Translations under genes and position numbers: made by a program
In this document: in pieces, positions 4,539 to 51,742 of the stretch
Layout of the letters: every line of letters begins with the position of its first letter
How positions within the stretch are numbered: position 1 is the first letter of the stretch
The notes under the pieces: generated by a model
Seen by the model: the letters and a program-made list of their open reading frames with translations, nothing else
What the model was told of the DNA's origin: nothing
Databases searched by the model: none
Source of the DNA: an uncultured Thermodesulfobacteriota bacterium
GTDB taxonomy: Bacteria; Desulfobacterota; WTBG01; CAIYCZ01; CAIRTM01
Direction: 5' to 3'
Assembly (NCBI GenBank): GCA_964518865.1
Contig: CAZFIB010000013.1
Coordinates: 2,777 to 66,776 of the forward strand
Length of the DNA stretch: 64,000 nt

Positions 4539-4625
4539 CGGCGGCAGAAGGCGGTGCGCACGGCGCGCCGTGCAGTCTCGCCCCTGTGCTTTCTAAACTC
4601 ACTTTAGAGCATGTTCACACCACTG

Positions 4626-4723
4626 CAGCCATTCTGTCATTTCGAAGGAGCACGGCGACTGAGAAATCTCACGCCCCTGAAGAGATTTCTCCCCTTCGGT
4701 CGAAATGACAAAAAAACAGCCGG
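4626..4723 (+). repeat. Repeat family A, copy A1 (~100-bp imperfect palindromic element).
   Basis: ...ccattCTGTCATTTCGAAGGAGcacggcgactGAGAAATCTCacgcccctgaaGAGATTTCTCcccttcggtcgaaatgacaaaaaaaCAGccgg. Near-identical copies occur at 10693-10792 and 51519-51620. The two ends are inverted repeats of each other. The inner stem is GAGAAATCTC/GAGATTTCTC. Confidence 0.8.
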
Positions 4724-4931
4724 CGACAGTAAAGAGAAAGGCACGCTGCTTCAGCTTTTCTTCTTCGCCCCCGTCTCCGCACCTGCACCTTAAACCCGTT
4801 GCTTTATCGCAGTATTTAAATTAGTATAGATTTTATTTAATCTTCGCTCCTGCTGTGCACGCCATGAGCGGGACGCATCGTGCCTGCGGGGCGGGGACAC
4901 GCACACCGTTTGGACAGGAGAGCACCGGGCG

Positions 4932-6998: not shown

Positions 6999-8377
6999 CA
7001 GGCGTGGAATATGCCGGTGACAGATCGGTGCTGGTTGTCGAGGATACGGCAGGTATCCGGGAAGCGCTGGTAAAAATATTGTCCAAAGAGAATTACGCTG
7101 TTTTTTCCGCGGCAGACGGACAGGAAGCCGTGACGCTTTTACAGCAGGAGGATATCGGCGTCGTGGTGACGGACTTGAAAATGCCCCGCATCGACGGCGT
7201 TGAGCTGCTGCGCATTGCAAAAACCATTTCGCCGGATATCGAGGTTATCCTGATTACCGGCCACGGCACGGTGGAGGTTGCGGTGGAGGTGATGAAGGAC
7301 GGCGCGTTCGACTTTATTCAAAAGCCCTTCAACAAGCTGACCGTTCTCAAAATCGTCAGGAATGCCCTGGAAAAGCGCTCGCTTGTGCGTGAAAACAGAA
7401 TGCTGCTCGAACGGCTGCAGGATGCCAGGGGAACCGACAGCGTTATCGGCAAAAGCGCGGCCATGCGGCGGGTCATGGACCTGGTCGCGCAGGTGGCACC
7501 GAGCTCGGCAAACATCCTGGTTACCGGTGAGAGCGGCGTCGGCAAGGAGGTCATCGCCAAAGCCCTGCACGATATGAGCCCGCGCCGCGAATGCAATTTC
7601 ATCAAGGTCAGCTGTGCGGCACTTCCCGAGACCCTGCTGGAGGCGGAACTGTTCGGCTATGAGAAAGGCGCATTTACCGGAGCGGTCAGCCGCCGGGAGG
7701 GCCGCTTCGAGCTTGCCCACGGAGGAACGCTTTTTCTGGATGAGGTCGGTGAAATCAAACCGGCCATGCAGGTCAAGCTTCTCCGGGTGCTGCAAAGCGG
7801 TGAGTTCGAGCGGCTGGGCGGCGGAAAAACCATAAAAGCCGATGTGCGTGTCATAGCCGCCACCAACGCCGCCCTCAAAGATCTTGTGGAGCGCAAGCGG
7901 TTTCGCGAAGACCTGTACTACCGGCTGAATGTCATCAATATCGAGCTGCCGCCGCTTGTCGAGCGCCGGGAGGACATCCCGCTTCTGGCCGACCACTTTC
8001 TTAATCGCTATATGAAAAAAAACGGCAAGAACATCGAGGGTGTTTCGCGGGAAACCATGGACATTCTGACACGATATCACTGGCCGGGAAATGTGCGTGA
8101 GCTCGAAAACACCATGGAACGTGCCGTGGTGCTGTCACGGGACAGAATCATTTCACCCGACGATCTGCCGTCGGATATCGTATCCTCAGCCGCGGCAGTC
8201 AGGGATGTTTCTGCGGGAGGGCGTGTGCTCAATATTCAGGTCGGTAAAACCCCGCTCAAGGAAATCGAGAAAAAGGTCATCGAGGAAACCCTCAGGCAGG
8301 CAAAGGGCAATAAAAACATCGCCGCAAAGATCCTCGGCGTTTCGGCGCGCACCCTGTATCGCCGCATTGAAGAATAA
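6995..8377 (+). CDS. Sigma-54-dependent response regulator (NtrC/AtoC family): REC - AAA+ sigma-54 activator - Fis-type HTH.
   Basis: REC domain with [28 protein letters not shown] Walker A. GAFTGA loop ([17 protein letters not shown]). C-terminal [24 protein letters not shown] start overlaps the kinase stop (GTGA). Confidence 0.85.
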
Positions 8378-10503: not shown

Positions 10504-10692
10504 TGCGGTCACGCAACTTTGACGGTTCCGTAAAAAGTCCATCTGCTGCGTTGCGCGGCATCTTCAGTCATTGCGGCGTACAAACAAGTACGCCTCATTT
10601 CTTCAGATTTGCGCGCCTTGCATCTGAAGCTTTTTACAAAACCGCCCCGTTTCTTGCTTTTTACGACTTCATCAATTTTAAATGTCATAATC

Positions 10693-10792
10693 TACTATGG
10701 CCATTCTGTTACTTCGAAGGAGCAGGGCGACTGAGAAATATCACGCCCTGAAGAGATTTCTCCCTTCGGTCGAAATGACAAAAAACAGATGG
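10693..10792 (+). repeat. Repeat family A, copy A2.
   Basis: tactatggccattctgttacttcgaaggagcagggcgactgagaaatatcacgccctgaagagatttctcccttcggtcgaaatgacaaaaaacagatgg. It differs from A1 by point changes and 1-nt indels. Confidence 0.8.
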
Positions 10793-10892
10793 TTATAGAA
10801 AATAGAAAATTACTCTATGTAAAAAAGTTGATTGCAAATATAGCATTAAAATGTTATTTAATATTATTAAATAACAATAATATGTTATTTAT

Positions 10893-11026
10893 GGCATTTA
10901 TTGATAGAGTGCAGCCGTGCAGGAGCGGCCTCCGTCCGCGAAAAAAATTGCAGCTAAAGCAGCTCCCGCATTTTCGCACCACACGGCGGGCACCGAAAAA
11001 AGGCTGTAGAACAGAGTGAAGTGCAC
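10893..11026 (+). repeat. Repeat family B, copy B1 (~133-bp structured element).
   Basis: ggcatttattgatagagtgcagccgtgcaggagcGGCCTCCGTCCGCgaaaaaaattgcagctaaagcagctcccgcattttcgcaccacacggcgggcaccgaaaaaaggctgtagaacagagtgaagtgcac. About 80% identical to the copies at 45256-45388 and 51372-51500 (the latter in reverse orientation). Confidence 0.75.
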
Positions 11027-11076: not shown

Positions 11077-12222
11077 ATGCTGTTTCGTCGGTTGCTCGAC
11101 CTTGAAAAACTGAAAAGTTCAGCATTTGTTTTCGGTCCCCGGATGACCGGTAAAACGACGTTGCTGCACAGGCTGGGCTCCGATGCGGCCTTCGATTTGC
11201 TTGACCCGGAACTGGAACTCGAATACCGGGCAAACCCGAAACTCTTCTGGGAGGTCGTTTCCGCTTTAGCCGAAAACTCACTGGTAGTGATTGATGAAAT
11301 ACAGAAAGTGCCGGCACTTTTGAACTATGTTCAAATGGGAATGGATCGCTTCAATCACAGGTTCATTCTTACCGGATCGAGTGCCAGGAAGCTCAAGCGG
11401 GGCGGGGCTAACCTGCTTGGCGGAAGAAGCCTCGACTTGAAACTTCACCCCTTGACGCACGAAGAGCTGGAAAATCATTTTTCCATCGACCGTGCATTAC
11501 TGTACGGGACGCTTCCGAAAATAGCCGCTCTGCTTGTCGATCAGGATGTCTCGCTCGCTAAAAAACATCTCAGAAGCTATGTGACAACGTATATCAAGGA
11601 GGAAGTTCAGGCTGAAGCGCTTACCCGGAACCTTGGCGCCTTCCAGCGGTTTTTGAACGTTGCCGGTCAAAGCAACGGGCAGATTGTTGAATTCTCCAAT
11701 ATTTCACGGGAATGCGCGGTTCCGGCAAGTACCGTCAAAGAGTATTACCAGATTCTGGAAGACACGCTGCTCGGCTTTTTTCTATGGCCGTTCGATCGCA
11801 ATGAGCGGAAGAAAGCGCGACCGAAATTTTATTTTTTTGACTGTGGTGTTGTTCGATCCATTCAAAACAGACTGGAAGATCCTCCGACGGCCCCTGAGAC
11901 GGGTTTTTTATTTGAAACCTGGTTTGTAACGGAAGTTATCCGTATACGGGATTATTATGAAAAAGACCATCAGATAGCCTTCTGGCGCAGCCGGAACCAT
12001 GAAATAGATATTATCATTTCAGGAGGGCACGGGCCGATACTGGCTATTGAGTGCAAGTCGGGAAAATCGGACGTTGCCGGTTCGACCTTCCATGCATTTA
12101 AAACCTCTTTCCCCGGAACGCCGTTACTCGTTGCTTCGCTTACTGATGACCGCCCCAGGAGAGCGGGCGGCGTCGATATCCTGCCCTGGCGACAGGTGCT
12201 CGAAACGTACCGTATGCTGTAA
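11077..12222 (+). CDS. AAA+ ATPase of the COG1373 type (AAA_14 plus a DUF4143-like C-terminal domain).
   Basis: 381 aa. Walker A GPRMTGKTTLL. Walker B LVVIDEIQKVP. The C-terminal region is typical of this orphan ATPase family. Confidence 0.75.
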   Translation: MLFRRLLDLEKLKSSAFVFGPRMTGKTTLLHRLGSDAAFDLLDPELELEYRANPKLFWEVVSALAENSLVVIDEIQKVPALLNYVQMGMDRFNHRFILTGSSARKLKRGGANLLGGRSLDLKLHPLTHEELENHFSIDRALLYGTLPKIAALLVDQDVSLAKKHLRSYVTTYIKEEVQAEALTRNLGAFQRFLNVAGQSNGQIVEFSNISRECAVPASTVKEYYQILEDTLLGFFLWPFDRNERKKARPKFYFFDCGVVRSIQNRLEDPPTAPETGFLFETWFVTEVIRIRDYYEKDHQIAFWRSRNHEIDIIISGGHGPILAIECKSGKSDVAGSTFHAFKTSFPGTPLLVASLTDDRPRRAGGVDILPWRQVLETYRML

Positions 12223-12352
12223 ATGTCTCCACCCGCCCCGCAGTATTGCATGTACCGGTATCCTGTAGCCGCAAACCGGATTCCGGAATCAAGAGGCTGT
12301 GTCGTAATGCATTCATATGCGATTTCGAGCAACAGCGGGAAACGGCAAGGTT

Positions 12353-13907: not shown

Positions 13908-14133
13908 CATCCAAGCTGTTTTAGATTTATGATATTCGCGGTTCGCGTTTTTGTCCTTTCCCTCCACCCTCTTTCCTGTGCCGCGGCCGAAAGCCGCTCC
14001 TGCCTCTTTGCCTTGCTGCCTTCTCAACATAGCGGCCATTCGTTGACTTGCCGGACGTAATCTGGTAGGTGTCTCATACACCGGAGAGGAAACGCTTCCG
14101 CGTGCTGTTCATAACCCATGGCTGCTGTCAACA

Positions 14134-16569
14134 ATGAGTTCTGAAACCATCATTTCACCGGTGTCCTCCGGGCACCAGTATCCCGGCGTGCCATCCCTAG
14201 GTAAGCTGACGGCGGTCTATTTTCTCTTTTTCGTTTCGGGCGCAACCGGTCTGGTGTACGAGGTTGTCTGGAGCCGGATGCTTGTGCTGGTGACCGGCAA
14301 TACCGCCGCTGCCACGTCGCTCATTCTGGCAGCGTTCATGGCCGGCCTCACCCTCGGAAGTTTTTTCTGGGGACGCTTTGTCGTGCAATGGCGGTTCAGC
14401 GGCCTTGTGCTGTTCGGCTGCCTCGAGGCCGCAACCGGCCTGCTGGCGCTGTGTGTGCCCGTGTGTATCAGCCGGGCCGCAGGGGTCGAAGCAGCGCTCA
14501 TGGCCGCGGTTCCCTGGCACCAGCCTGTGCGGTTCGGCTATTGTTTTCTGGTGCTTCTGGGACCTGCCTTTCTCATGGGGGGAACCTATGCCGTACTCGG
14601 GCACCACATTATCCGAAGGCGCCGCCGGTTCGGACGACATGCGTCACTGCTGTATGCCGTCAACACACTCGGTGCGGCTGCCGGCTCGCTGCTTACCGGT
14701 TTTCTGCTGATACGGCTGCTGGGGCACACGGGCAGCATTACTGCAGCGGCACTTGTCAACCTGGCAGTCGGCGGGAGTGCCCTTTTTTTCGGCCTCCGGA
14801 AAAGCCTGCTGCCGGACGTTGCCGAGCCTGACCGGCTGGGTGAGAATGGAACGTCGGGGCCGTCGGTGCCCCGGACAGTTGCCGTGACAGCTCTTGTTGC
14901 GGTGACCGTCAACGGTTTCTGCAGCATCGCCTATCAGGTGCTGTGGACGCGGCTGCTCGTGCTTGTTGTAGATAACTCCGTTTATTCGTTTGCCTTTATG
15001 CTTACCTGCTTTCTGCTCGGCATGGGGCTTGGCAGCCTCTGGCTCGGGATGCTTGACGGCTTTGTGCGCAGGCAGCCGGTTGTGACATACGGGCTGGTCT
15101 GTGCCGGTATGGGTATTTCATCCTTTTTCGTGCCCTTTTTCATAGCGTGCAGTCCGCCGGACCCGGCCCAGCCGTACTGGGTGTTCCTGCTGCAGCGGCT
15201 GCCCCCCTTTGTGTTCGTGCCGACGCTGTTTATGGGCATGAGCGTGCCGCTTGCCGCCCGACTGTATGCGGTTCGTGCCTGCGGGACGGGAAAGCGGCTG
15301 GGCATTGTGTACGGGCTCAGTACGGCAGGCGGTGTGCTGGGGGCTCTGGCAGCCGCTGTCCTGCTGCTTCCCGTGATGGGGGTTCGCACAAGCCTGCTGC
15401 TGCTGCCCGCCCTGAGCATTGTGTGCGGGGGGCTGCTGCTGGTGCAGCACTTCAAGGGTTTGCAGGCCCTGGGCGTTGCCGGCCTGATGACCGTTCTCTT
15501 CGTCACCGGGCCGCTGCTCATGCCTGAAAATTATTTTGCAGACAAATACAGCGGCCTGGAGCCGGGCAGCGAGCTGCTCTACTATGAAGAAAGCCTGGCT
15601 GCAACCGCAACGGTTTTCAGGCGTCCGGACGGCAATGTGCTGCTGTACCTGAACGGCATTCCCGAAGTCGACACCACCAGGCTGTCGGTTATGACGTTCA
15701 AGCTGCTCGGTGCGCTTCCCTGCCTGCTGCACCGTGGTCCCGGGCGCGCGCTGATGATAACATTCGGGGCAGGTATTACCTCAGGCACGGCGGCTCTGTT
15801 TGCCGACCGCGTCGACTGTGTCGACCTTGCCGGGCAGGCGCGGCGTATCGCCGCGCTGTTCAGGCCGGTCAACAACGGTGTTGCTGCGCTTCCGAACGCA
15901 ACCCTGCATATTGATGACGCGCGTCATTTTCTGCAGACCGACATGCAGCGCTATGCGGTCATTGTCTCCGATGCGACGCATCCGCGCTCCTATGACTCCT
16001 GGATACTCTATACGGAAGAGTTTTACCGCCTGGTAGCGCAGCGCCTCGGCCCCCAGGGTGTTTTCTGCCAGTGGGTGCCGTTCCACGGCCTGGCCCCGCA
16101 GCAGTTTGCAAGCATCATAGCGACATTTCACAGTGTGTTTCCTCACACATCGCTGTGGCGGATCGGGCAGGGATATGCCGTGCTTGCCGCAACACCGGAA
16201 GAACTGCGCATTGACGTAAAAAACATGTTTGCGCGTCTTTCCGCGCCTGATGTGCAGCGCGATCTGAAAATGGTGGGTCTCGACAATCTTTTTGAGCTGC
16301 TTGCCTGCTTTGTGATGGGTGAGCAGCGGGTCGGCGGCATTGCGCGTACCGCATCCACGGTCATCCGTGACAACAGCCCCGCAAACCTTTTTTTTCCGTT
16401 CACCGCGACCCTCGATGAACAGTACCAGGGATGGCCGCGGGAGAATTTCTCCCTGATCGCTCAGCATGAGGAGTCAATAGAGCCCTACCTTGCAAACATC
16501 AGCAGTAATCCAGAGGACCGCCGCAAAATTATCGACATCATGAAAAAATATGAACAGCGCCGCAGGTGA
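14134..16569 (+). CDS. Fused MFS-like polytopic membrane domain / spermidine synthase-like (aminopropyltransferase fold) protein.
   Basis: 811 aa. N-terminal ~12 TM helices beginning FLFFVSGATGLVYEVVWSRML. C-terminal SpeE-like domain ALMITFGAGITSGTAALFADRVDCVDLAGQARRIAALF...LHIDDARHFLQTDMQRYAVIVSDATHP. Confidence 0.8.
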   Translation: MSSETIISPVSSGHQYPGVPSLGKLTAVYFLFFVSGATGLVYEVVWSRMLVLVTGNTAAATSLILAAFMAGLTLGSFFWGRFVVQWRFSGLVLFGCLEAATGLLALCVPVCISRAAGVEAALMAAVPWHQPVRFGYCFLVLLGPAFLMGGTYAVLGHHIIRRRRRFGRHASLLYAVNTLGAAAGSLLTGFLLIRLLGHTGSITAAALVNLAVGGSALFFGLRKSLLPDVAEPDRLGENGTSGPSVPRTVAVTALVAVTVNGFCSIAYQVLWTRLLVLVVDNSVYSFAFMLTCFLLGMGLGSLWLGMLDGFVRRQPVVTYGLVCAGMGISSFFVPFFIACSPPDPAQPYWVFLLQRLPPFVFVPTLFMGMSVPLAARLYAVRACGTGKRLGIVYGLSTAGGVLGALAAAVLLLPVMGVRTSLLLLPALSIVCGGLLLVQHFKGLQALGVAGLMTVLFVTGPLLMPENYFADKYSGLEPGSELLYYEESLAATATVFRRPDGNVLLYLNGIPEVDTTRLSVMTFKLLGALPCLLHRGPGRALMITFGAGITSGTAALFADRVDCVDLAGQARRIAALFRPVNNGVAALPNATLHIDDARHFLQTDMQRYAVIVSDATHPRSYDSWILYTEEFYRLVAQRLGPQGVFCQWVPFHGLAPQQFASIIATFHSVFPHTSLWRIGQGYAVLAATPEELRIDVKNMFARLSAPDVQRDLKMVGLDNLFELLACFVMGEQRVGGIARTASTVIRDNSPANLFFPFTATLDEQYQGWPRENFSLIAQHEESIEPYLANISSNPEDRRKIIDIMKKYEQRRR

Positions 16570-16844
16570 TTTGCGGGATTCCGCCGGACTTTTTTTCTGC
16601 TGCATGAAGACTGCGCAAATGTCTTGAATATACGGTTTTCCGTCCGATATGAACAAAGAGGCGCGTCTGCCGCTGGTTCTGAAGCATGGTGCGAGACCAT
16701 ACCGATTATTGTGCTGTAGTGTAAAATTATTTTATAGTTACTATAAAAATAGTTTATATTTTCACGTGGCAATTATTGAAATACGGTATGTAAAATAATA
16801 AATAGTATGAAAAATCAAATATTTAAATAATTTCGGTTTTTCAG

Positions 16845-16858
16845 GGAATGATTTATGC
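16845..16858 (+). promoter_or_regulatory. Weak candidate sigma-54 promoter (GG-N10-GC) in the very AT-rich leader of the fimT2-pilWVXY1 unit.
   Basis: GGAATGATTTATGC. The spacing is correct but both hexamers are poor matches. About 40 nt upstream of the ATG at 16898. Confidence 0.15.
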
Positions 16859-16897
16859 TTTATAAGTGAAACTGAAAATTATCAGCAGGGGGAAGAA

Positions 16898-17404
16898 ATG
16901 CTTTCATCCTCAAAAGGTTTTTCCTTGGTGGAACTCATGGTTGTCGTTGCCATAGTATCATTAATGGCAATCGTGAGCGTTCCGAGCATGACACGAGGCA
17001 TACCAAAATACCGTGTCAAGTCATCCGCAACCGACCTGGCGGCTAAGCTGAGAAAGGCCCGCTGGGTGGCTGTCAAGGAAAAGCGCGATGTGTCAGCCAC
17101 CTTCGATACCTCCAGGAATAATTATATCGTTGACGGAACAGAGTTTCCCCGCACCGGCGGTCTTTCATCGTATTACGGCAGCGGTGTCACCTACGGGGTC
17201 GGTGCTACAGGTGAGCCCCAGGCCGTTGACTGCGGGGGGGCTGACATCAAAACCCTCAGTTTTAACAGCCAGGGCCTTCTGGAAGACGGAGACGCGGTCA
17301 TTCACCTGATCAACAACAAGAACAAGGTATACCGGGTCAGGATCACCGCCGCCGGCAGCATCGTTGTCCAGAACTGGACAGGCGGAGACTGGGACCCGAG
17401 CTGA
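16898..17404 (+). CDS. Type IV minor pilin FimT/FimU (GspH-like), paralogue 2.
   Basis: MLSSSKG|FSLVELMVVVAIVSLMAIV prepilin signal. 168 aa. GGAAGAAATG RBS. Confidence 0.8.
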   Translation: MLSSSKGFSLVELMVVVAIVSLMAIVSVPSMTRGIPKYRVKSSATDLAAKLRKARWVAVKEKRDVSATFDTSRNNYIVDGTEFPRTGGLSSYYGSGVTYGVGATGEPQAVDCGGADIKTLSFNSQGLLEDGDAVIHLINNKNKVYRVRITAAGSIVVQNWTGGDWDPS

Positions 17405-17452
17405 CACAGGACCGCTTTGTTATAATATATACTGCATGAGGGGTTGATCGTA

Positions 17453-44275: not shown

Positions 44276-45249
44276 ATAGACTGGACAGCGTATTTGATAT
44301 CGTTGCGGACGAGATGAAGGTTGTTGAAAAAACACTGTTGGCGCATGTCGGAAGCGATATAGACCAAATTAACAGTATCTGCTCGTATGTTTTCAAAAGC
44401 GGGGGCAAGCGGCTGCGGCCGCTGATACTGCTGCTTGCGGCACGCTGCTGCGGGTATCAGGGCGACAGCCATATTACCGTTGCCTGCGTGATGGAGTATA
44501 TTCATACGGCTACACTTCTGCATGACGATGTAATCGACCATGCCGAGATACGACGGGGCAATTCTTCGGCAAACATACTCTGGGGCAACCAGTCGACGAT
44601 ACTGAGCGGTGACTTTCTGTTTGCCAAGGCCTTTTCGCTTGCTGTCTCGATCCATGATATCGAAGTACTCGATATCATCGCCGAGACCTGCAGCCGTCTT
44701 GCAGAGGCCGAAATGATGCAGGTTATCAAAGCAGGGGACCCCCGAATAACGGAACAGGAGTACTTTACAATCATTACCGATAAAACGGCATCCCTTTTTT
44801 CCGCCTGCACACGCATCGGCGGAATTCTCGGCCGGGTGTCCGGGGAGAAAGTAAAAGCCGTAGAGCGCTACGGCCACCACTTCGGCATAGCTTTTCAGAT
44901 TATGGATGATGTGCTTGACTATTCCGCCCGCGAAGAGGACCTCGGCAAGACTATCGGCAAAGACCTGCAGGAAGGCAGCATAACCCTTCCCTTTATTGCC
45001 GCCCTGGAACGAAGCTCACCGCAGGACCGTGATTGTCTGCTCAATGCCTTCGGCCCGGGCAGCGTATCACCGGAAAACCTTTCGAGAATTATCAAAATTG
45101 TCGAGCACTACAAGGGCAGCGATTATGCTGTAGCGCGTGCGCGCGACCATGTGCAGCATGCCATCGATGCGCTTGAGGCTTTTAAAGATCGTGATGCGGT
45201 ACAGCCGCTCATCGATCTGGCGAAGTACGTCGTTGAGCGCACATCATGA
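44272..45249 (+). CDS. ispB: Polyprenyl diphosphate synthase (IspB-like).
   Basis: FARM LLHDDVIDHAEIRRG and second DD motif FQIMDDVLD. Confidence 0.85.
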   Translation: MNRLDSVFDIVADEMKVVEKTLLAHVGSDIDQINSICSYVFKSGGKRLRPLILLLAARCCGYQGDSHITVACVMEYIHTATLLHDDVIDHAEIRRGNSSANILWGNQSTILSGDFLFAKAFSLAVSIHDIEVLDIIAETCSRLAEAEMMQVIKAGDPRITEQEYFTIITDKTASLFSACTRIGGILGRVSGEKVKAVERYGHHFGIAFQIMDDVLDYSAREEDLGKTIGKDLQEGSITLPFIAALERSSPQDRDCLLNAFGPGSVSPENLSRIIKIVEHYKGSDYAVARARDHVQHAIDALEAFKDRDAVQPLIDLAKYVVERTS

Positions 45250-45255
45250 TGCTGT

Positions 45256-45388
45256 GGCATGTATCAAAATAATGCAGCCGGGCAGGAGCGGCCTCCGGCC
45301 GCAAAAAGAATCGCAGCCAACGCAGCTCCTGCATTTTCGCACAACCTGCGGGCACCGGACTAAGGCTATGGAATAGGGTGAAATGCAC
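45256..45388 (+). repeat. Repeat family B, copy B2.
   Basis: ggcatgtatcaaaataatgcagccgggcaggagcGGCCTCCGGCCGCaaaaagaatcgcagccaacgcagctcctgcattttcgcacaacctgcgggcaccggactaaggctatggaatagggtgaaatgcac. It abuts the stop of the minus-strand gene at 45388. Confidence 0.75.
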
Positions 45389-45756
45389 TAGCGCTGAATG
45401 GTTTTATCGATTTCATACTCGAGGTAATAGGTGTATCCGGGAAACTCCAGTGCGGTCTCCCACCAGACGTAGATGTTGAGGCTGTGCGGCCTGGCCGTAA
45501 TTTCTACATCTTCTTCATACAGCTCGATGCCGATTTTTTCGGCTTTCAGAATAACTTCGTTTCGGATTTTGTCGGCATCTTTGGGCCCTGCTCCCGCATT
45601 GGCCCAGTATTTTGTGATTGTAGTCACCTCCTCCTTCAGCGATTCATAGTCCCACTGTGCGTACCCCCACTTCAGACCAAACCAGACTCCAATTGCAATC
45701 AGCAGTATCGGGAAGATACAGCCGACGGCCGAGCCTCCTCGCATGGATTTCAGCAT
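45388..45756 (-). CDS. Hypothetical small membrane-anchored protein.
   Basis: 122 aa. N-terminal TM CIFPILLIAIGVWFGL. Co-oriented with the downstream dtd. Confidence 0.55.
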   Translation of the reverse strand: MLKSMRGGSAVGCIFPILLIAIGVWFGLKWGYAQWDYESLKEEVTTITKYWANAGAGPKDADKIRNEVILKAEKIGIELYEEDVEITARPHSLNIYVWWETALEFPGYTYYLEYEIDKTIQR

Positions 45757-51224: not shown

Positions 51225-51371
51225 GTCGAAAAAATCATAAATGTGTGTCCGGCGAAGGCGGGAATCCAGTGCTTTCGTTTTCGACTGACTTCTCATCCCG
51301 CCGGGGCTGGATTCGAAATGACAGTACGGATCGGTGCGCACGGCACACCCTGCGGAAGCTTTTCCGCATTA

Positions 51372-51500
51372 GTGCACTTTACACTATTCCATAGCCTTTT
51401 TCCGGCGCCCGCCTGGTGGTGCGAAGCCGGAGCCTCTTTATCTGCGATTTATTTTCGCGGCCGGAGGCCGCTACCCGGCTTCATTGTTTTGGTACATGCC
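51372..51500 (-). repeat. Repeat family B, copy B3 (reverse orientation).
   Basis: Its revcomp reads ggcatgtaccaaaacaatgaagccgggtagcGGCCTCCGGCCGCgaaaataaatcgcagataaagaggctccggcttcgcaccaccaggcgggcgccggaaaaaggctatggaatagtgtaaagtgcac. Confidence 0.75.
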
Positions 51501-51518
51501 GTAGAGCCATTTTTACAC

Positions 51519-51620
51519 TACTATGGCCGTTCTGCCATTGCGAAGAAGCACAGCGACTGAGAAATCTCACGCCCCTGAGGAGATTTCTCCCTTCAATCGA
51601 AATGACAAAAAAAAGATGGC
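51519..51620 (+). repeat. Repeat family A, copy A3.
   Basis: ctactatggccgttctgccattgcgaagaagcacagcgactgagaaatctcacgcccctgaggagatttctcccttcaatcgaaatgacaaaaaaaagatggc. Confidence 0.8.
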
Positions 51621-51742
51621 TGCAAACAAGAGGAAACTGCTTCAGACGGCAGCAGTTCTATTCACCATAGAAGTAATAACAGGGAATATGGTATAATCAT
51701 TTGTGTTTTATATGCTATACACCAATGCGTGTGGAGGGGACG

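Follow-up and report, generated by a model that had tools for sequence, protein, structure and literature searches.

Intergenic repeat families A and B of an uncultured Thermodesulfobacteriota-like bacterium are very probably MITEs of the IS630/Tc1-mariner type

Within the 64-kb window (the whole stretch of DNA that was analysed), two families of intergenic repeats, denoted here A and B, occur together at two loci with opposite relative orientation of B: at 10.7-11.0 kb, A(+) is followed by B(+), and at 51.4-51.6 kb, B(-) is followed by A(+). This arrangement, pointed out in the original prediction, raises the question of what these repeats are, whether they share an origin, and whether they delimit accessory insertions in an otherwise conserved gene order.

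Copies and placement of families A and B

Application of find_repeats to the window identifies three copies of family A, all on the plus strand, and three copies of family B. Copy A1 (4607-4751, plus strand, 145 nt, flanked by TA at 4605-4606 and CA at 4752-4753) is located between the acetyl-CoA synthetase terminator and a histidine kinase gene and carries a 6-nt insertion at its 3' end. Copy A2 (10681-10815, plus strand, 135 nt) is flanked by TA at 10679-10680 and at 10816-10817 and has deletions in its 5' terminal inverted repeat (TIR). Copy A3 (51504-51642, plus strand, 139 nt, with CA as the 3' flank) is the neighbor of copy B3 (51372-51501, minus strand, 130 nt), which has TA on both sides (51370-51371 and 51502-51503). 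The two other copies of family B are B1 (10892-11026, plus strand, 135 nt, flanked by TA at 10890-10891 and by GG) and B2 (45255-45388, plus strand, 134 nt, flanked by TG and by TA at 45389-45390). A shorter, degenerate element, E (12246-12315, plus strand, 70 nt), in which the 5' TIR is good but the 3' TIR weak, and which is flanked by TA at either end, starts 24 nt past the stop codon of an ATPase gene that is discussed below. Altogether, seven elements (A1-3, B1-3 and E) are dispersed over five intergenic regions of the 64 kb.

The mean column identity is 89% in the alignment of family A and 86% in that of family B. The covariance models of the two families score 135-170 bits on the six copies, do not exceed about 15 bits at any other place in the window, and detect no further copies either in the 64 kb or in 343 kb of related loci. 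The elements of the two families are 130-145 bp long, non-coding, and differ in their cores. Across all elements (70-145 nt), coding capacity is absent, with stop codons interrupting most frames, and a search with the concatenated translations of all open frames finds no protein homologues of A or B. Exact-pattern scans with the family A core (GCGACTGAGAAATNTCACGN{0,1}CCCTGA) give no match in genome or metagenome contigs, neither of which include the source species. The two Logan contigs from the same organism (SRR7048224) start or end inside A2, B2 and A3, as expected for multi-copy repeats.

Copy B2 occupies the entire intergenic space between two convergent genes (window 45247-45390). The element begins 6 nt past the stop codon, TGA, of polyprenyl synthase, and on its other side, the TAG stop codon of a minus-strand gene for a 122-aa membrane protein is made up of the B2-flanking TA and the terminal base of B2. 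In alignment, the C-terminus of this protein comes within 3 residues of the orthologue's end, so that the stop codon is in the native C-terminal position.

A terminal inverted repeat shared by the two families

The clue to the nature of the repeats came from two elements in related genomes, L004 11012-11207 and L059 6865-7040, the 3' tails of which resemble those of B and A2. When the 55 nt at the start of each of these two elements, of A1-3 and of B1-3 are aligned with the reverse complements of the 55 nt at their ends, all 16 ends fall into a single 27-nt block, with TA in front of it and AGCC as its last bases, reading (TA)GAGCATTTC...TAGCC. Accordingly, both A and B are bounded by a TIR of about 25 nt with the consensus GAGCATTTCACAAAATTCTGTAGCC, and given that the same TIR is present on both, A and B are not independent families. 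In leave-one-family-out profiles, the omitted ends come back as the best out-of-sample matches. The original prediction noticed a tatgg(a/c)c-like motif in A and B and took it as a hint of a shared recognition site; this understated the case, because the motif is the inner part of the ~25-nt TIR that is common to both ends of A, both ends of B and the ends of the IS630-family insertion sequence (IS) described below. Element E belongs to the same series: it is the top out-of-sample TIR match of the profile built without family A (E = 0.19) and the second-best match of the metagenome-only profile (E = 0.006), with both ends 16/25 identical to the consensus.

With E counted, TA flanks 10 of the 14 element ends in the window, compared with a background TA frequency of 3.2%, a count to be read with the fact that the end positions were partly set by aligning to a TA-containing model; the other 4 of the 14 ends have non-TA flanks. 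Immediately after the 3' ends of A1 (4752-4754) and A3 (51643-51645), CAG is found in place of TAG, and this identical T-to-C difference could be due to a source variant common to both copies, to gene conversion or to chance. Identity to the consensus is 14-20/25 (56-80%) for the ends of the window copies. Given these worn ends, the deletions in A2, the insertion in A1 and the four non-TA flanks, the window copies are probably old, immobile insertions. At A1, the orthologous intergenic DNA of the relatives is too diverged to be aligned as a filled and an empty site.

Elements with the same ends in metagenomes and an IS630-family IS

A scan of metagenome contigs with the degenerate end pattern TARWGCATTTCNCNNNNNNCYRTAGCC, in which one end was required, returned 51 loci. 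A profile search then finds the second end, in inverted orientation, in about 29 elements, with a spacing of 129-236 nt and most commonly about 185 nt; given that the scan required one end only, these paired ends are an independent confirmation of the TIR. The metagenome elements are flanked by TA in 29/29 cases on the left and 27/29 on the right (56/58 ends), the outer bases being CTA or TTA on the left and TAG or TAA on the right. Two of the elements, L085 3084-3231 and L111 1604-1751, are 148-nt homologues of family A with canonical ends, TA flanks and cores 80-83% identical to the A core. No family B core was found outside this organism among the relatives' loci and metagenome contigs compared.

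The metagenome consensus can be tested back on the window. When all 31-nt windows on the two strands of the 64 kb are scored with a consensus derived from the metagenome elements only, three ends of the repeats come out at the top of 128,000 windows, namely, the 3' TIR of B2 (19/25 identical to the consensus), the 5' TIR of A1 (4607-4630, 20/25) and the 3' TIR of B3, in this order, and inward-facing element ends make up 7 of the 11 windows that reach a score of 9 or more. The family A ends are individually weak with the metagenome-only profile, where they rank 6 and 11.

The transposase is suggested by a 1-kb IS, L105 137-1141, the partner ends of which lie about 1 kb apart and are of the same type as those of A and B. 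All 14 element ends of the window align with the ends of this IS and of the 29 metagenome elements at 14-20/25 identity. Two ORFs that overlap each other lie between the ends of the IS and match HTH domains of the HTH_Tnp_IS630 type and DDE_3 (E = 6e-33); the transposase scores 119 bits against NCBIfam NF033545, IS630 family transposase (cutoff 100), and its best plasmid matches are annotated IS630 family transposases with about 52% identity. No transposase gene or full-length IS is present within the 64-kb window; the cognate IS comes from another metagenome contig, L105. Taken together, the common TIR, the TA flanks, the homologues of A with canonical ends and the matching IS make it very probable that A and B are two MITE families of the IS630/Tc1-mariner type that share their ends with an IS630-family IS.

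Several observations on these contigs are of separate interest. The L105 IS needs a frameshift between the HTH ORF (731-1102) and the DDE ORF (148-768), and the 3' end of another MITE (L105 59-85) is located 52 nt from the left end of the IS, which is again a case of clustering. A 185-nt MITE family with the same ends is represented by 24 detected copies (L066, L080, L094, L099, L104; Ga0118677 and others), at a density of 2-4 copies per 10-14 kb contig, with 12 contigs coming from a single metagenome; this abundance suggests a recent burst in some organism. The elements of the relatives, L004e and L059e, were considered as members of the 185-nt family and rejected, their ends alone being in common with it.

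Folding of the repeats and alternative identities

Family A folds into a long hairpin (z of -3.2 for A1 and -4.4 for A2), and each of the three A copies is oriented toward a gene that follows it on its own strand. Together with the presence of same-ended elements at orthologous intergenic sites in relatives, these features are compatible with A and B being structured RNA genes or cis-elements at set intergenic positions, the end block forming a closing helix. However, the A hairpin is fully explained by inverted ends and a palindromic core, and the covariation term is unfavourable (+2.64), with double changes in 3 of 43 pairs and many pairs broken. The folding of B is no better than that of shuffled sequences (z from +1.0 to -1.6), and B is found in both orientations and between convergent genes. 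The elements at orthologous sites have unrelated cores and share only the transposon ends. An Rfam search over the repeats yields nothing credible up to E = 10, the only gathering-level matches in the window being tRNA and SRP RNA at 32.7-32.9 kb. An RNA identity of A and B thus appears very improbable.

The palindromic character of the elements, their intergenic location, their length (70-145 nt) and their clustering also recall REP/REPIN-like or IS200/IS605-derived palindromes moved by a Y1 (RAYT/TnpA) transposase. Against this relationship, the long inverted ends match those of an IS with a DDE_3/IS630 transposase, TA is found as the flank on both sides, the conserved unit of GTAG plus a short hairpin is absent, and there is no Rfam match to IS605 or other RNAs, so that a Y1 origin is scarcely credible. 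As end motifs go, neither REP/RAYT elements nor integron attC sites fit the repeats, and both assignments were rejected. A sigma-54 promoter at the 5' end of B (TGGCAT...) was also rejected, the spacing being unsuitable, and the exact site TGGCAY-N5-TTGCW does not occur anywhere in the window. In promoter and terminator consensus scans, both loci are at the level of shuffled sequences, the one deviation being a slight surplus of weak terminator-like hairpins at 51.2-51.8 kb.

The two loci where A and B meet

Inclusion of the shared terminal repeats changes the geometry of both loci. At the first locus, the A2-B1 gap is then 76 nt rather than 100 bp. At the second, B3 and A3, thought to be 18 bp apart, are separated by a single TA (51502-51503), and it is the 5' end of B, not the 3' end as described in the original prediction, that faces A3. 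The junction at 51.5 kb reads ...GGTACATGCCG TA GAGCCATTT..., that is, B3 on the minus strand and A3 are arranged head to head around one shared TA, as expected if the TA next to one element served as the insertion site of the other.

Among the approximately 21 intergenic regions of at least 100 bp, three are occupied by A and three by B, and two are shared (hypergeometric P ~0.04), which weakly suggests co-occurrence beyond chance. The cluster at 10.5-12.3 kb includes, in this order, a repeat of a third kind, C, then A2, the ATPase cassette with B1 inside, and E. Family C (10505-10665, no strand assigned), downstream of etfA, is an unrelated long palindromic repeat with the ends GTAAAAAG...CTTTTTAC. 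It is 75% identical to L003 6985-7125 and is found also at L059 6805-6865, 7060-7205 and 11362-11470, L098 4658-4750 and L068 9753-9880. The family C elements are palindromes of about 140-160 nt with a central GGCGTAC-N6-GTACGCC hairpin and inverted ends of their own (GGTTCCGTAAAAAG...CTTTTTACAAAACC in the window and GGAGGCTGTCGGAGAA...TTCTCCGACAGCCTCC in relatives); the IS630-type TIR is absent. In relatives and metagenome contigs as well, family C is often located in the same gaps as IS630-type MITEs.

Next to the second locus, between the stop codon of the GH39 gene and B3, region D (51225-51345) contains interleaved complementary segments, GGCGGGA/TCCCGCC and ATCCAG/CTGGAT. Region D was considered as a decayed copy of A and rejected, given that it has only the exact 11-mer TCGAAATGACA in common with the A core.

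The ATPase cassette between etfA and PHP

The gene downstream of B1 (11077-12222, plus strand) encodes an orphan AAA_14/DUF4143 (Pfam) ATPase, an accessory protein that is a neighbor or cargo of the repeats and not part of them. Its match in PADLOC is the candidate defence family PDC-S01 (E = 1e-49). The GC content of the gene is 0.45-0.52, compared with 0.55-0.62 in the neighboring genes, and its homologues with 63-74% identity are scattered over many phyla, including Omnitrophota, Elusimicrobia and Firestonebacteria, in variable contexts, where they are encoded beside HigB and RelE toxin-antitoxin genes and transposases.

In two of the closest relatives, L003 and L004, the gene order is etfB-etfA-PHP(-)-gspH, with no ATPase between etfA and PHP, which identifies PHP as a core gene and the ATPase as an accessory one. 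The original prediction that the ATPase and the PHP phosphoesterase were inserted together therefore holds for the ATPase, which is missing from L003 and L004, low in GC and scattered among distant genomes, and fails for PHP, which is conserved in both relatives.

The 76-nt gap between A2 and B1 is the AT-rich promoter/operator-like region of the ATPase gene itself. The segment 10828-10889 (plus strand) is an AT-rich palindrome (inverted repeat I1) with 77% identity to the stretch that lies 20-80 nt ahead of the ATPase homologues in L121-L123 and L119/L120. The motif TTGCA-AATAACAT-N5-ATGTTAT is found in this segment and also in L112, and all the ATPase homologues carry the conserved AT-rich palindromic motif just upstream, TTGCA-AATAACAT-N5-ATGTTAT...AAATAACA, which is likely to be an operator. 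Given this conservation, the palindrome belongs to the ATPase cassette and not to the repeats. B1 is inserted between the palindrome and the start codon and hence, contrary to what had been proposed, is not a boundary of the cassette: it has the palindrome on one side and the start codon on the other.

The cassette is nevertheless bracketed by two repeats, A2 (ending at 10815) and E (starting at 12246), with TA at their outer ends. This configuration, the absence of the ATPase from L003 and L004 while etfA, PHP and gspH are kept, its GC content below that of the neighbors and its character of a widely scattered candidate defence gene are all compatible with a MITE-bracketed composite transposon, in which A2 and E would have moved the ATPase cassette as a unit and the repeats would be accessory borders. 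However, near the ATPase genes themselves, an IS630-type end is found at 0 of the 12 loci with the closest homologues, and in unrelated contexts the cassette is accompanied by its conserved palindrome upstream of the gene. E is itself a degenerate element with a weak 3' end; when the target is 2 bp long, TA flanks carry no information; a MITE is present in the same gap of L004 without cargo; and the repeats of the second locus are not at the borders of a variable block. Primarily on account of the 0/12 homologue loci with such ends, the composite transposon is quite improbable. Its extended form, whereby A2 and E would have mobilised the ATPase together with its operator as a composite and the MITE superfamily would re-target orthologous sites, turning them into reusable landing pads for accessory genes, is in our assessment unlikely.

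Synteny with relatives and the second locus

The nearest genomes (L003-L006), MAGs that bear the label Thermodesulfobacteriota, encode EtfA proteins 79-87% identical to that of the window. Most of the window is syntenic with one relative contig, JANQGV010000165.1 (which comprises L003 and L059). Conservation of gene order with the closest relative begins at about 38.8 kb and breaks off where the sigma-70 gene ends (49631): from 49632 (L059 11363 onward), the relative has a 1204-aa PAS histidine kinase, compared with GH39, the repeats and an 894-aa esterase-like protein in the window. There is no repeat at the start of the non-syntenic block, right after the sigma-70 gene, and B3 and A3 are located between GH39 and the esterase, that is, inside the variable block and not at its border as had been suggested. 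Thus, the general proposal that the repeats mark the borders of accessory insertions keeps part of its basis, namely, the accessory ATPase and its bracketing by A2 and E, and loses the rest, PHP being core, B1 internal to the cassette and the second locus internal to the variable block.

The relatives hold the same flanking genes without A or B, an observation that goes against the border proposal: in about 95 kb compared from the four closest relatives, both families are missing, also at the orthologous sites, which are polymorphic for presence and absence and contain either no element or elements of other families. The gap between etfA and PHP, with A2, B1 and E in the window, contains a different family in L004 (11012-11207), and the gap after the polyprenyl synthase gene, with B2 in the window, contains a different family in L059 (6865-7040); both of these MITE families have the same ends as A and B. 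Given that the relatives carry other same-ended MITEs there, these sites are recurrent landing places rather than island borders.

Two further observations concern the same comparison. An 811-aa protein (14134-16569) with a weak spermine-synthase-like domain is encoded between gspH and the next gene of the pilin operon; it has no counterpart in L003 and L004, where the two genes are adjacent, and accounts for a second insertion, of about 3.5 kb (window 13908-17440). Upstream of etfB, L003 contains textbook sigma-54 promoter motifs, TGGCATACGAGTTGCA and TGGCATAAAATTGCA (7403-7420 and 7508-7523), adjoining a sigma-54 activator gene.

Comparison with known elements

The small, non-coding, intergenic elements with IS630-like inverted ends and probable TA insertion described here closely resemble, in kind, RUP, a 107-bp MITE of Streptococcus pneumoniae for which mobilisation by IS630-Spn1 has been proposed (Oggioni and Claverys 1999, in PMC2229807). 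RUP was assigned to IS630-Spn1 by similar ends and the TA target (PMC2229807), and by analogy, the transposase assignment for A and B would rest on the same two arguments. In contrast to RUP, A and B are longer (130-145 nt), as are their ends (about 25 nt, with 9 contiguous bp given for RUP), and a single end type is common to several families with distinct cores. They also come from an uncultured Thermodesulfobacteriota-like bacterium, and their cognate IS is known from another metagenome contig only.

The Correia/NEMIS elements of Neisseria are 100-155 bp long and have inverted ends of about 24-26 bp with a terminal TA; their transcripts fold into long hairpins, and the elements insert near genes and can part promoters from coding regions (PMC2229807). 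A and B are similar to them in length, end length, terminal TA, hairpins and near-gene insertion, whereas the end sequences differ. The IHF site and outward promoter of Correia elements were not detected in A and B, for which the consensus scans are at shuffle level, and the cognate transposase of Correia is not established, whereas A and B have a matching IS630-family IS (L105). Compared by description only, the ends (GAGCATTTCAC...TAGCC) and cores of A and B are unrelated to those of RUP and Correia/NEMIS as given in PMC2229807; the host is different as well, and the resemblance is one of kind.

Among autonomous elements, A and B are akin to the IS630/ISY100/Tc1-mariner group through the end type of the L105 IS (HTH and DDE_3 domains, TA target and YTAR preference), differing in that they carry no transposase. 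For ISY100, it has been demonstrated in vitro that the N-terminal HTH binds the ends, that double-strand breaks are made, and that insertion occurs almost exclusively at TA, which is duplicated (PMC2170065).

A possible route of spread

By comparison with these systems, a transposase produced by a full-length IS elsewhere in the genome would bind both ends of A and B via its N-terminal HTH, excise the element and integrate it at a TA dinucleotide, preferably within YTAR, with duplication of the TA. Under this mechanism, A and B would be deletion derivatives of the IS or recruited sequences, reliant on the enzyme supplied in trans. The clustering of A and B would follow because the families share the same enzyme and the same TA target, and survive only in tolerant intergenic DNA; different families would then pile up in a few gaps, beside each other's flanking TA. 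At 51.5 kb, one of the two elements may have inserted into the TA flanking the other, and at 10.7-12.3 kb, A2, B1 and E may have landed around and inside the AT-rich ATPase cassette.

Implications

The kind of element represented by A and B is ordinary and well known, TA-targeting IS630-derived MITEs having been on record since RUP and Correia; the finding opens no new biological question, and what is new are the sequence families in an uncultured lineage. The repeats of the window, previously unexplained, can now be assigned to an annotated class, and at least seven core-distinct MITE families, A and B included, share one IS630-type end in uncultured anaerobic bacteria. Annotation of these elements explains breaks in assembly contigs and prevents spurious ORF calls over the repeats. 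It also flags insertions that may alter gene expression, in particular B1, which splits the ATPase gene from its likely operator, and B2, which abuts a stop codon.
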